A DNA stretch of 22,025 nucleotides from Octopus sinensis (lineage: Eukaryota): assembly GCF_006345805.1 (NCBI RefSeq), contig NW_021823575.1, positions 1 through 22,025 of the forward strand. Direction: 5' to 3'. Under the pieces are notes generated by a model. It saw nothing but the letters and a program-made list of their open reading frames with translations, had not been told where the DNA came from and did no database searches. Position 1 is the stretch's first letter; every line of letters begins with the position of its first letter. This document shows, in pieces, positions 9,804 through 20,185 of this stretch. Position numbers and translations under genes: made by a program.

Positions 9804-9859
<56 letters not shown>
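9803..9859. repeat. (TA)n microsatellite
   Basis: Visible. Confidence 0.95.
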
Positions 9860-9861
<2 letters not shown>

Positions 9862-10371
9862 AGAAAAAAGCAACAAGAATGGATTAGTTGTTCAGTACAA
9901 TTGTTTCATACGAAGAACAGCTTTATTAAAAGCTGCAAATATTGCAGCAAATACAAGTGTCCCGTATTCATCAGCCAAAACACATATGAGTTTTCCAAAC
10001 ATCCTAGGGGGTAAGGCTACACTCATGAAATATCGAAGAGAGTTCTATGAAAAGCAAGTTTAGATTGTAAGCAGACTTCAAAAGTTCTCTAATGATGCGC
10101 AGTTTTATAAAAGGTTTTTTTATAAAACTGTTTATCATTAGAGAACTTTTGAAGTCTGCTTACAATCTAAATTTGCTTTTCATAGAACTCTCTTCGATAC
10201 TTCATGAGTGTAGCCTCACCCCCTAGGATGTTTGGAAAACTCATATGTGTTTTGGCTGATGAATACGGGACACTTGTATTTGCTGCAATATTTGCAGCTT
10301 TTAATAAAGCTGTTCTTCGTATGAAACAATTGTACTGAACAACTAATCCATTCTTGTTGCTTTTTTCTTGT
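9859..10371. repeat. 513-bp near-perfect palindrome (254-bp arms, 5-nt spacer)
   Basis: 9859-10112 is the reverse complement of 10118-10371 with 6 mismatches by my count. Confidence 0.97.
10251..10339 (+). ncRNA. Type I hammerhead ribozyme-like motif (mirror copy on minus strand at 9891-9979)
   Basis: CUGAUGA 10256-10262; stem II atacggg/ttcgtat; GAAAC 10323-10327, palindromic aatt, GUA 10332-10334; stem I tttgg/ctgaa with 2 GU pairs. Confidence 0.65.
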
Positions 10372-10485
10372 TTATAATCACCCCACATTATTTTATGGTT
10401 AATACCATAAAGATTTCTGGTGCATCTAAGTTAAGTACCGCATTCATGTGAATCATGGAACTCACTTGAATCTTAATTGTTTTAC

Positions 10486-10490
10486 TATAT

Positions 10491-12764: not shown

Positions 12765-13020
12765 GAACCATACAACTTACTCTCCAAAGGTCTGAAATTC
12801 ACACCAACCCCCCCACGTCCAAACTACTACGAAATGAAGGAAGACATTATAGAATTTTGTAGAAAATTGCGACTTAGTGAGGAACTATTCGACCAGCACA
12901 ATGAGGATGAGTCACTAGCTAGAAATAAAAGCAACTACACCCCACCAAAAGGTAGAAATAAAATCCTAGACGAATTCTGTGAGCACATTACAAACTTCCC
13001 CTACCAACACTTACACAAAC
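12765..13020 (+). mobile_element. Penelope-like element ORF fragment (region N-terminal to RT)
   Basis: LLSKGLKFTPTP...DIIEFCRKLRLSEELF...KSNYTPPKGRN, a characteristic PLE N-terminal motif. Confidence 0.8.
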
Positions 13021-13042
13021 CATATATATATATATATATGCA

Positions 13043-14970: not shown

Positions 14971-15220
14971 TACATGCATCCATATATTATCTTCCTTCCT
15001 GGATCTCCTTTTCCTCTGTTTCTGACGAAGAGCTCCGCTCGAAACGTTAAAATCCTCCTTCTTTCTTTCTTTCCTGAGCGTCCAATAACACTATACTTGT
15101 TTCCACGTCCTCACGTTGTTGTGTTTCTCTTTGTGTTTTCATGTTTGGATTAACTTACATAATATATATATATTATATATATTAATATATATATATATAT
15201 ACATACATACCATACATAGC

Positions 15221-15252
<32 letters not shown>

Positions 15253-15508
15253 CACATACATACAAACATACATACATACAACATACATACATACATACAT
15301 ACATACATACATCTACATACATGCATGCATCCATATATATATCCTTCCTTGGATCTTTCCTTTTCTATGTTTCTGACGAAGCTCCGCTCGAAACGTTAAA
15401 TCCTCCTTCTTTCTTTCCTTTCCTGAGCGTCCAATAACACTATACTTGTTTCCACGTCCTTGCGTGTTGTGTTTTTCTTTGTGTTTTCATGTTTGATTAA
15501 CTATACAT
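14971..15508 (+). repeat. Tandem duplication of a ~185-bp unit (14971-15160, 15324-15508) with minimal HHR-like motif; probable PLE terminus
   Basis: Two close copies separated by TA/TACA microsatellite; ctgacga-agagctccgctc-gaaacgtta. Confidence 0.8.
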
Positions 15509-15630: not shown

Positions 15631-15668
<38 letters not shown>

Positions 15669-15672
15669 CAAT

Positions 15673-16190
15673 CAAAAATTTTTTTGCCACCCTATATTGA
15701 TTAATTATGAATTTTCTGGTTAATTCCGTAATGGAATCGGCGGCTATATTATTTGCTGCCGATAAATTTGGCGCGAGTGCGATGATTTGAAAATTAAGGT
15801 CAGATATTGCCGAGGCAGGACGGGAATGCCTCGTGAAAATATCTGTTCCGACTTGGCTATTTCTTACTGATGAATCTAAGGGCCTATGGTGGATTGGCTT
15901 GATTTATTTAATCAGGTTAGTTTACCATTAAACCGTAGACGAAACGGTGCATCGCTATAAGAAATTACAGGGTAAATGTTTTTTAATTTTCTCCTGGTTT
16001 ACGGAATTGATGTTATTTGGCGTTAAAGCTTTTGGCTGTTATTTCTAGTGGGTGAATGGCCTATTATGGCCGTTCCTTGATTGTGATGTTGAACTTAAAA
16101 AAGGTCTATGACTATTTAATTTTTTCCCACTAGGCCGCTGGTGGCAACAAAAATTCTACAAAATTTTTTTTTGCCACCCTATATGATTAT
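15673..16190 (+). mobile_element. Terminally redundant, structured, HHR-containing non-coding element (retrozyme-like)
   Basis: Direct repeat aaaattttttt(tt)gccaccctata at both ends, 487 nt apart; many hairpins; microsatellite flanks. Confidence 0.6.
15859..15965 (+). ncRNA. Type I hammerhead ribozyme-like motif
   Basis: Stem I atttctta/taagaaat (8 bp perfect); CUGAUGA 15867-15873; stem II tcta/taga plus 19-bp internal hairpin; GAAA 15941-15944; quasi-palindrome cggtgcatcg; CUA 15955-15957. Confidence 0.7.
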
Positions 16191-16239
16191 TTTATATATA
16201 TTATATATATATATCTATATATATATATATATATATATG

Positions 16240-16440
16240 GCTCAAATTTACAGAAAACAAAACACCAAGAGAAGTGTAGGAACAACAAGCAGGTGTATTA
16301 GTTTAACACTCGGGAAAAATGGAAAAGTCTCCACGTTCGACCTACGCTCTTCGACAGAAAAGATTGAGAGGGAAAAAGGGAAAGAAAAACGGAGAGAGAA
16401 AAATGTGTACAGTTCAACGGTCCCACATGGCTAGATGACT
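16240..16440 (-). repeat. Diverged inverted relative of the 14971-15160 unit
   Basis: Minus strand ttctgtcgaagagcgtaggtcgaacgt...ttcccgagtgt...cttgtt resembles ttctgacgaagagctccgctcgaaacgt...ttcctgagcgt...cttgtt. Confidence 0.55.
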
Positions 16441-16486
16441 GGGAAAAAAGAGGCTGAATGAAAGAGAAATAATAATAATAATAATA

Positions 16487-16552: not shown

Positions 16553-17011
16553 ATGTAAGAACGATAAAACAGAGCTCCGAAATCTATCCACAAACATCGA
16601 AAACAAAGACATCGTATGGAGATGAAAAATAACTGACAAAGGATTGGACTATATCCGAGTAAGTAATACTCATTGAAATTTATTACTATTTCGAAACGAA
16701 ATGATGTATTTAACTCGATATCATCTCCACCTCTAACACAACACATGTAAACATGCGTGAACCTTACGATCCATCAACACCCCGGATCATCCCCGACCCC
16801 AAACATCATGTACAAAAAAAACTACGAAGAAATTAAATACACCGATATTATTCACCAAGAATAACAATCGGGAAGTACGTACTTTAAACTTACAACAAAA
16901 AATGTACGAAAAACTACACGTGCAAAACAATGTGACAACAGAAATGAATGGACCGGTACCCTACAAAAATGACGACCGTCAAAATAATGGGCCGGACGTT
17001 GTATAAAACCC

Positions 17012-20000
17012 AAAAGACACAAATGGACACGTGAGGAATACATTTCTATCTTACACGCATACTTCACAGCAGTGCTCTACCCAAAAAATGAAAGCACAAC
17101 AACACATACATATAAAATATGGAAGGAAAATAACATAAATATAAACTTGGATACAGCAATGAACCCTAATAAACTAGCTAACGTACGAAGATACATTCTC
17201 AACGCAAAAAAAATATCAGAAATAGAAATAGAACATCTAAAAGAAAAAATACATCAGGAAAATGTAGATAGAAGCCACACAACAATGCCCAATAATATAA
17301 ACACTGAAACAGTAAAACACGAAGACAAACGTAACATTCCCAACAAACACGATGTAAACAAAAAACAACAAACCCAGACCGTAAGGATGCATAATAATAC
17401 ACAACAAACAGCAAGCCAAAGCACAACAGACAAGCATACGAATAAGAAAGAAAGCGACACAAATCTAAAACCTAGAAACAACGAAGGGGAGCCTAATGAT
17501 TATGATACTATAAAAAGTAGAATAATCAAAGAACTGAAAAATACAGATCTCAAGATGGACCACCGACCATACCTCCCAAAGATCAAAATAGACGAAACAA
17601 CAACACCAATTATAAACAGCATAAACCTAGCCGTCACGGAACTAATAGCCGCTGAGACAAAAAGCGATATCACTGAGCTAAATGACTTAGTATACGCAGC
17701 AGCCACTGCAGCCACAAAAGAAGCTGGATACTCACTCAAACCCATCCAAACAGAAGTACCACCACCCAAACAAACCCTGTGGATAAATAATATTCAAAAC
17801 AAAATACAAAAAATGAGAAAAGATCTGTCGATTCTTAATGAAATCAGTAGACAATCAACGCTACTGAGCAACAAAAAGAAAACAAAAATACTCCGCAGAT
17901 ACAACATCACAGAAAAAGATTTACCTGAGATAAAAGAAAAGCTAAAGCAAGATAACCATCTTAATTTCCAAATCAAATGAGACAGCAAAACCAGAAAACT
18001 ACAGACCAATAACCTGTTTCCCTACAATGTACAGGGCATTTACTGCAGTGATATCGCAAAGGTTGAACAAGCACCTGGACGAAAACAACCTGTTTCCAGA
18101 AGAGCAGAAAGGATGCCGCTAAGGCTCATATGGCTGTAAAGATCAACTAATGATTAATAAAGCCATAACTGAAGACAGCCGCAGAAAGAAGAAAGGCCTC
18201 AGTAAGGCCTGGATCGACTACAAAAAGGCATTTGATAGCATCTCCCACACATGGATCCTCGAAATACTAGCCATTAACAAAGTAGCACCAACAATTATAA
18301 AATTCATAGGACATTCTATGAATAAATGGCAAACAGTGCTACAGCTCCAAACAAAAGAGGGCCTCATGAAAACCAAAGCCATCCCCATTAGGAGAGAAAT
18401 ATTCCAGGGAGACACGCTCTCTCCACTCCTTTTCTGCTTGGCACTGTCACCTCTATCTGATATGCTAAATAGAACTGGATGCGGATATAAATGTTACGGC
18501 AAAACGATCAGCCACCTTTTATATATGGATGACCTAAACTATACGCTGCAAATGACAAACAGCTGGAAACACTATTAAAGAAACACTATTAAAGACAGTT
18601 CATGGATTTACCAAAGAAATAGATATGAAATTTGGATTAGAAAAATGCGCCAAAGTAACCCTGAAAAGAGGAAAACTAGTTAAGAGTAGCAACATCACAC
18701 TAGATAAAACCAATGAAATAAAATAATTAGACAAAAGCCAAACTTACAAATACTTAGGAATCCATGAACTAGATAAGACACAACACACACAAATGAAAGA
18801 GAAAATAAAAAAAGAATATTATAGACGAGTTAGATCAAAACTAAAAACAGAGCTCAATGCTAAAAACAAGATAATAGGTATCAACACTTTAGCTGTCCCA
18901 GTTATAAGTTACAGCTACAATATCCTTAACTGGACACTAAATGAACTGACCAAAATAGATAGGAAAACAAGAAAAATAATGACAGGATCTAGGATGCATC
19001 ACCCAAAATCTGACATAGAAAGACTATATATACAACGTGTAGAAGGTGGTAGAGGCCTTATACAGTTGGAAAACTACTATAAAATAACCACCATAGGACT
19101 GCAAAAATATCTACTTCAGAAGAAGGAAAACTGATACAAATAGGCAAAAACACGAGCAAAACAAAAAACTGTTCTCAGTATTTAAGGAAGCTGACAAATA
19201 AACAAGAAATCATACCACCTAATAAATATGAAGAAGAAGAAGAAGATGAAGAAAACAACAAAAGCTATAAAACAAATGAATCCAAACTAAAACTAGAACA
19301 GCAAAGAACCATGATGAAACGATGGCAAGAAAAGCCCCTTCATGGTAAATACTGGACTAAACTAAATGCAAAAGAAATAGACAAATAAAAATCCCAGCAA
19401 TGGTTGAGAAGCTCAGGACTCAAAGCAGAGACAGAGGGATTTTTAATTGCAGCACAAGACCAAAGCCTCCCCACCAGAAATTACCAAAAACATGTAATGA
19501 AAAGAAATATAACAAGTAACTGCAGAATATGTGGAGATGGACAAAAAACAATAAATCATATTATCTCTGGCTGCCCAGTCCTGGCTAAGAAGGAATATAT
19601 TCACAGACCCGACAGAGTTGGAACCTACATACATTGGATGCTATGCCAACATTATGGAATAACAACAGAAAAAAGATGGTATAGGCACACACCAGAAAAG
19701 GTCACAGAAAACGAGAAAGCAACCATACTCTGAGATATGCCGATACACACAGATAGAGAAATTAATGCCAACAGACCAGATATAGTTGTCTGAGATCATG
19801 AAGAAAAAAAATGCCTTCTAATTGATGTATCAATACCGGCAGATGACAACGTGTCTCTGAAAGAAATGGAGAAACTTTCAAAATACAAAGACCTGGAAAT
19901 AGAAGTAACCAGAATGTGGAATCTAAAAACAGAAACAATTCCTATCATAGTAGGTGCATTAGGCATGATAAAAAAATATTCAGACAAATACATAACAAAA

Positions 20001-20090
20001 ACACCAAGACTTACAAACACATATAACATACAGAAAATTGCACTACTAGGCACTGCACAACATCCTACGCAAAACACTTTCAATACAATA
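17012..20090 (+). pseudogene. Disrupted RT-RLE polyprotein ORF
   Basis: ORF-track pieces 17072-17980, 18150-18578, 18793-19134, 19404-19733 and 19851-20150 are consecutive parts of one protein broken by stops and frameshifts, e.g. 14-bp duplication gaaacactattaaa near 18566-18593. Confidence 0.9.
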
Positions 20091-20185
20091 ACCATCAGAG
20101 CCACAACAAATCACAGCACAGACCAAGGCACACAGAGCTGCGCTCGGTAGTGAAGTGAAAGCACACTATAAAAATTAAAAATAGT

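Follow-up and report, generated by a model that had tools for sequence, protein, structure and literature searches.

Metazoan non-LTR retrozymes, known from coral, mussel and axolotl, consist of tandem non-coding units with one type I hammerhead ribozyme (HHR) each; they are highly self-paired and co-occur with PLEs (PMC7229834; 10.64898/2026.07.22.740005). According to the same sources, the axolotl HHRs work best as dimers, and mobilization of animal retrozymes by PLEs is a hypothesis drawn from co-occurrence and sequence trees. The escape of retrozyme circles from self-cleavage is left without explanation in the available text of PMC7229834. PLE insertions are recognized by their partial tandem copies, by a further copy that is inverted and 5'-truncated, and by a tail on one side (PMC8557442), the tail being the spacing of two RT start sites (PMC11167929). 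In Hydra-clade PLEs, one of which (Hydra-1_Obim) is catalogued in Octopus bimaculoides, the target is (TA)n, an inverted arm is 5'-truncated, and the HHR has a canonical core, a 3–4 bp stem III and, in the published examples, a short stem II (PMC8557442). Poseidon_Ac from Anolis has an AT-rich target, both strands of which are cut and extended, a tail set by two RT start sites, and a protein predicted to be a dimer (PMC11167929). The role of the HHR in PLEs has been called unclear (PMC8557442), and it was dispensable in vitro (PMC11167929). In newt satellite 2 and the minimal double hammerheads of PLEs, a palindromic helix III allows tandem RNA to be cleaved and is believed to leave monomeric circles uncut (PMC4209133).

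The element studied here lies in a 22,025-nt stretch of Octopus sinensis DNA, which we call the window. It resembles the metazoan retrozymes in being built of non-coding units in tandem, each with one type I HHR, in its high self-pairing and in its co-occurrence with PLEs. The unit of 489 nt exceeds the 170–400 nt circles of PMC7229834 but falls inside the 51–972 bp of the vertebrate survey (10.64898/2026.07.22.740005), and it differs from the metazoan retrozymes in a 67-nt stem II domain that the Rfam models miss. Inverted arms, two fixed ends, (TA)n targeting and a cephalopod family are undescribed for retrozymes in the available text of these two sources. The target, the inverted 5'-truncated arm, the canonical core and the 3–4 bp stem III are shared with Hydra-clade PLEs (PMC8557442), whose published HHRs differ in their short stem II; a long stem II and a tail of more than 100 nt are shared with the local Hydra-type families. 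Unlike Hydra-clade PLEs, the unit has neither an ORF nor detectable similarity to the Hydra 3' ends tested. Two RT start sites setting the tail and an AT-rich target also recall Poseidon_Ac, which, however, is autonomous and has adjacent start sites, with PLE tails of 30–40 bp (PMC11167929). Zero RNA-seq reads of Poseidon_Ac end at the HHR site (PMC11167929), whereas the 5' ends of the octopus arms cluster there. The 10-nt octopus palindrome is in principle able to fold into a 4-bp hairpin; in the monomer it is predicted to be trapped by core pairing, unlike in the systems of PMC4209133, and the fold predicts dimer control as described there. We consider it probable that the element is a non-autonomous, ORF-less non-LTR retrozyme, inserted as two inverted arms in (TA)n and copied by a PLE, most likely of the Hydra clade.

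The window copy and its family

The element occupies 15664–16192 of the window, with two inverted arms between (TA)n tracts (Table 1). The original prediction began it at 15673 and overlooked the short inverted arm; we place the start at 15664 because 15664–15675 is the exact reverse complement of 16077–16088. The copy is composed of a 518-nt E2 arm and a 12-nt E1 arm, which overlap by 2 nt. The extra C beside its cleavage triplet, likewise overlooked in the original prediction, likely damages the ribozyme and, with this single damaged HHR, the copy is probably a dead end.

Table 1. Parts of the element in the window (positions of the window)
Feature	Position	Strand	Remark
(TA)n target tract, left side	15637–15663	.	
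Short inverted arm, 12 nt, ends at E1	15664–15675	−	exact reverse complement of 16077–16088
Main arm, 1.06 units	15674–16192	+	5' truncation variable, 3' end fixed at E2
Long-range helix 15722–15731/15999–16008, enclosing hairpins 15736–15763 and 15801–15845	15722–16008	+	compensatory changes in sister subfamily
Type I hammerhead (HHR)	15859–15965	+	parts in the following rows
HHR stem I, perfect 8 bp	15859–15866/15958–15965	+	
HHR core, CUGAUGA and GAAA	15867–15873; 15941–15944	+	
Stem II domain of HHR, 67 nt	15874–15940	+	
Predicted HHR cut	after 15957	+	
Stem III decamer, self-complementary	15945–15954	+	predicted pairing between neighbouring units (double hammerhead)
Extra C private to the window copy	15955	+	beside cleavage triplet GUA; 1/48 units
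E1, first fixed end, inferred priming site after ~16087	16077–16088	+	490 exact E1–(TA)n junctions, control 0
Tail from E1 to E2, ~105 nt	16088–16192	+	holds hairpin 16141–16177
E2, second fixed end, inferred priming site ~16192	16178–16192	+	990 exact E2–(TA)n junctions, control 1
(TA)n target tract, right side	16193–16238	.	

The predicted direct repeat at the termini, offset by 487, is present (15674–15697 against 16161–16184, 92%), and stem I is confirmed as a perfect 8-bp helix. The helices 15722–15731/15999–16008, 15801–15808/15838–15845, 16141–16147/16171–16177 and, with one G-U pair, 15736–15744/15755–15763 were found where claimed; the cccactag and tgcctcg segments exist as well, one base off the coordinates tested. 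Conversely, the proposal that one monomer plus a short overlap is the footprint of a circle did not hold. The interval 15668–15715 contains 10 5' ends against 16.0 expected and, because 5' ends are not enriched in the overlap phase, the 30-nt redundancy of the window copy is not diagnostic. It is the combination of a fixed 3' end with variable 5' truncation.

The island is strongly structured, as had been noted from its sequence: the fold energy of its + strand, −151.9 kcal/mol (z −5.0), is equalled by 0 of 100 shuffles. Since the − strand reaches a similar z of −5.5, z alone cannot give the strand. The + strand, also proposed originally, is accepted as the RNA strand because it carries the sole CUGANGA core, its circular fold is 35 kcal/mol lower, and 25 of its 149 pairs are G-U. 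Folded as a circle, the monomer is highly self-paired (z −4.3 against 40 shuffles). The suggested search with the Rfam hammerhead models gave zero matches in the whole window and in the island, even at E ≤ 10, which may be due to the long stem II.

The window element belongs to a real, young family of non-LTR retrozymes with one HHR per unit, and the retrozyme reading of the original prediction is thereby upheld: the family is high-copy, tandem and ORF-less, with a conserved core and covarying stems. At least 204 matches to the unit, at 92–97% identity, came from the 40 of 1137 candidates that were scored, and the 990 exact E2–(TA)n junction sites imply at least 990 insertions. The median period is 489 nt (113 cut-to-cut intervals), and head-to-tail arrays reach ~22 units. 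The HHR core is identical in 48 of 48 distinct full units, a set selected for closest similarity to the window and therefore not random; core mutations are present in some copies. The longest ATG-started frame of the unit encodes 42 aa. The minus strand has zero CUGANGA cores, and neither strand has an Rfam ribozyme. The unit was also found in contigs of four public runs with four organism labels, three of the runs being only presumed RNA.

A motif taken from these contigs led to a sister subfamily in the O. sinensis genome (L376–L395), 72–78% identical over the unit, with 40 exact matches. Its ends and target are the same in the 20 loci examined, and its HHR shows compensatory changes and a GUC triplet. 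A further ORF-less tandem family (L147, 6264–7380; period 535) is bi-armed in (TA)n, has a long-stem-II HHR, and shares the E1–tail–E2 module with the unit (z 7.9). Two other bi-armed islands in (TA)n were noticed: one, at L167:400–900, matches the family profile at E 2e-9, and the other, at L319:2410–3060, has a common 24-nt motif, a tail of ~96 nt and a module z of 1.8. No cephalopod retrozyme was found in the literature searched, where the supplements of PMC7229834 and 10.64898/2026.07.22.740005 may list invertebrate families. Relative to that literature the family appears new; its kind is known, its ribozyme is unusual, and its PLE integration scar is clear.

Insertion anatomy and arm ends

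The structure of the insertions was established from a position-ordered E1 sample, consisting of 95 of the first 100 matches on the chromosome-scale contigs C1–C3; the remaining five were already included or were a second match in one locus. Removal of two segmental duplicates and one censored locus left 92 insertions, with arm ends curated by hand from BLAST tiles. An inverted second arm ending at E2 is present in 72 of them; of the rest, 13 consist of one arm, 2 show a different inverted end, and 5 adjoin other sequence. Starting from E2, all 30 of 30 loci belong to the retrozyme family, 7 of them cut by the locus edge; in the 23 uncensored insertions E1 lies opposite E2 in 20, and E2 opposite E2 in 0. 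The (TA)n flanks would mask any target-site duplication. The retrozyme insertions therefore carry the PLE-type integration layout (PMC8557442; PMC11167929), with a tail of ~105 nt rather than 30–40.

Both arms usually appear to derive from the same template. Of 42 informative insertions, 37 have the same haplotype in both arms (random mean 7.3, maximum 15 in 5000), and the units inside one array share a haplotype as well. The arms are discordant in the other 5 of the 42, a minority that uses two templates. In 24 of 70 pairs the end phases of the two arms differ by no more than 12 nt (permuted mean 5.1, maximum 16 in 20000), and the same holds for 16 of 56 once the cut-site cluster is left out (permuted 3.8). 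Such ends fit two RTs reaching the same end of one RNA. Eighteen of the 24 same-phase pairs are also in the same round, and these may instead have arisen by snap-back synthesis. As a general source of the second arm, snap-back was rejected, with 46 of 70 pairs at unrelated phases and several E1 arms longer. Stops just past an arm's own start were likewise dismissed, being seemingly enriched in a similarity-biased first sample and not in the position-ordered one. At L244, L265 and L266 the 5' ends of retrozyme arms adjoin other repeats that begin in (TA)n; the repeat at L244 presumably resembles the 3' end of an octopus SINE.

A cluster of 5' ends at the predicted cut was first noticed in the initial sample and then tested on the position-ordered one, in which 27 of 162 5' ends fall in 15956–15979, the 24 nt at or after the cut, where exposure would predict 8.7 (p 1.8e-7; 21 bins). 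The 24 nt before the cut contain 0 5' ends against 8.2 expected, or 1 (L245) after base-level reading. Across all loci examined, 18 arms start between −2 and +10 of the cut (20 rows, less two from diverged copies whose sequence runs on into a core of variant type), and 2 start in the preceding 13 nt. Most arms read through the cut, namely 67 of 80 E1 and 40 of 47 E2 arms in a first pass. RT stalling or microhomology can also produce peaks, since the centre of the stem II hairpin is enriched too (17 against 7.6 expected), a case of a peak arising from structure alone. We favour cleavage as the explanation for the sharp edge at the predicted bond, the arm ends being an indirect sign of self-cleavage.

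RNA fold and the stem III decamer

The consensus fold, based on 9 family units and 14 sister units, contains stems I and III. Over its 91 named pairs, 95% of cells are paired, and two-sided change occurs in 8 of the 91 pairs and in 56 cells, compared with 25.6 after shuffling; independent covariation events are few because the alignment holds about three lineages. The stem III decamer occurs in three versions, all of them self-complementary, with energies of −11.7 to −15.4 kcal/mol. The bases just before E2 might also pair with those just after the cut (alignment columns 17–21/323–327), but this helix is unproven; its bases are unchanged in 22–23 of 23 rows, with zero covariation.

In the predicted folds of natural tandem dimers, the probability of inter-unit stem III is 0.95–1.0 in four of four. 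Constrained folds of two of these dimers place the double hammerhead at the minimum or within 1.3 kcal/mol of it, and 5–10 kcal/mol ahead of two single HHRs. The four circular monomers folded behave differently: all four have a predicted stem III hairpin probability of 0.01–0.06 and a largely paired core. For the isolated HHR domain, the blocked fold is ahead by just 1.9 kcal/mol in a secondary-structure prediction without tertiary contacts. These predictions suggest a monomer-off, dimer-on switch, in which tandem RNA would fold as a double hammerhead and the monomer would be inactive.

Source of the machinery and form of the template

Because the insertion scars match those of PLEs, the element likely records a self-cutting, possibly circular RNA inserted by a borrowed enzyme pair. 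We propose that arrays are transcribed from the + strand and that neighbouring units would pair through the palindromic stem III, forming the predicted double hammerhead and releasing 489-nt monomers. The monomer would then refold with its core blocked, and would probably be ligated into a circle. A PLE protein dimer on one RNA could cut both (TA)n strands and prime two cDNAs, at E1 and E2. Each cDNA would run round or along the template until it fell off or reached the ribozyme-cut 5' end, and short overlaps would join the two.

It is very unlikely that the element is instead a conventional pseudo-LTR, forming the 3' end of some unsampled autonomous PLE. Its integration is exactly like that of a PLE 3' end, and of the 57 retrozyme families of Xenopus, 24 correspond to known TEs, PLEs in almost every case (10.64898/2026.07.22.740005). 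Moreover, our PLE sampling covers four families, and the endonuclease query of a Hydra-type family alone gave 17,386 first-look candidates. However, the 61 of 162 arms longer than one unit lead into the next unit and never into an ORF. In the original prediction, constant attachment to a PLE ORF would have marked a pseudo-LTR; such an ORF adjoins the element in one of the 247 overlapping records of loci, which represent about 170 insertions, and so the element is not the pseudo-LTR of the four PLE families sampled. In contrast, the Hydra-type 3' end at 9854–10490 of the window leads straight into its own ORF in 4 of 25 loci. Satellite DNA formed by DNA-level duplication, or an endogenized viroid-like RNA-to-RNA replicon, is a scarcely credible origin. 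Some arrays do show local duplication patterns, and the RNA resembles viroid-like circles in its compactness and high degree of pairing. Reverse transcription is required, however, to account for insertions that are dispersed over (TA)n sites, carry inverted arms, and have fixed 3' but ragged 5' ends. The lack of a minus-strand CUGANGA and of Rfam ribozymes, together with the short longest frame, also speaks against a viroid-like replicon.

Among the PLEs, the Hydra clade appears to be the best candidate for the mobilizer, and from the length of its tails and its type of HHR we hold this with moderate confidence. The PLE 3' end at 9854–10490 has two inverted arms in (TA)n, an HHR at ~10256 with a 60-nt stem II and a palindromic stem III, a tail of ~110–120 nt and 2182 first-look candidates. 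Its RWK, DKT, CxCX5C linker, CxxC and CxH motifs, recognized by eye (L372, L373, L375) and compared with PMC8557442, point to a Hydra-clade PLE and make it a candidate mobilizer. A second Hydra-type family (L396–L425), the one with the endonuclease query above, combines a tail of ~150 nt with a long-stem-II HHR and, like the first, targets (TA)n; from that candidate number, Hydra-type PLEs look very abundant in the genome. The Hydra-type and retrozyme ribozymes suggest that HHRs with a very long stem II are common in O. sinensis and missed by Rfam. For a neighbouring PLE, the closest proteins that bear a name come from octopus.

A mobilizer from two further families, PLE-A and PLE-B, which are putatively Neptune-like by their motifs, seems unlikely. 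Both are young, target (TA)n and have paired ends. In addition, L257 (6300–9466), the sole insertion found next to a PLE ORF, carries a Neptune-like PLE 3' arm with a PLE-B E2-type end on one side, then 104 nt of retrozyme sequence and, on the other side, an E1 arm of the retrozyme, with no TA between. Against this, the tails of these families measure 30–45 nt (that of PLE-A from one E1 example), their HHRs, judged by eye, are minimal, and L257 is 1 of 92 insertions and can be explained by a switch of template or by two insertions combined with a deletion. A ~105-nt tail considered for PLE-B at the single locus L307 was discarded, five other loci giving 30–45 nt. The HHR-like motifs seen by eye in Neptune-like 3' ends (L147:5430–5480; L335:6600–6655) have variant cores, of U3-A8 type and with C at position 4. 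Local alignment showed no similarity between the 3' module of the unit and six PLE or PLE-type 3' ends, Hydra included (z −1.3 to −0.1). The best blastn E between unit and PLE was 0.23 in 49 GIY-YIG loci, with none in PLE-B proper, and nhmmer found zero similarity between the unit and PLE 3' ends.

Regarding the template, array homogeneity and read-through of the cut site make a circle plausible, at a little better than even chances. Thirteen variants private to one array are fixed throughout its 3–9 units, and 124 variants confined to a single unit are not mirrored in the opposite arm, where a unit of the same round is present, a soft test since they include later mutations and assembly errors. 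A pure monomer circle, however, does not predict the 6 of 19 cross-arm minority variant pairs that are mirrored, nor the minority variants that recur with period 5 in the 22-unit array (L039 and L160; G000:C22:28190264–28200570). The period-5 pattern may stem from a multimeric template, from subsequent duplication or from faulty assembly. The same element and PLE machinery might act on a linear tandem transcript, partly cleaved and never circular, with arrays copied from parent arrays; we regard this as a doubtful but sizeable alternative. It would accommodate the mirrored pairs, the period-5 and period-3 patterns of two arrays and the arms that stop at the cut also after 1–3 rounds, and in vitro the Poseidon PLE, for which HHR activity is dispensable, uses mainly unprocessed RNA as substrate (PMC11167929). 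The homogeneity of arrays and the unmirrored single variants argue against it; copying from parent arrays alone would shorten arrays and pass on unit-specific variants.

More tentatively, and at somewhat less than even odds, this family and at least three related ones may be circular hammerhead RNAs parasitic on Hydra-clade PLEs. Their ~1,000 insertions would then be a fossil record of one RNA and two RTs that start at fixed sites 105 nt apart, roll round the circle and run off where a dimer-only ribozyme cut in vivo. If true, this would be direct genomic evidence for the mobilizer of animal retrozymes and for the in vivo action of a PLE-type hammerhead. The family presents the PLE integration scar at scale on an ORF-less retrozyme, with 5' ends at the ribozyme cut, and offers the predicted switch. 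With two start sites and candidate proteins named, a direct in vitro test is possible.

Other features of the window were observed as well. By eye, two tandem short-repeat copies with a minimal HHR-like core (+ strand) and an HHR-like variant (− strand) were noted at 15000–15160, 15350–15500 and 16240–16480; lying beside (TA)n, they are probably other PLE ends. The fragment at 12780–13030 is, again by eye, similar to the N-terminus of Neptune-like ORFs. A broken non-LTR retrotransposon occupies 16988–20150 on the + strand (RVT_1, E 7.5e-12; zf-RVT, E 8.4e-5); it ends at an (ATA)n tract and is presumably R4/Dong-like.
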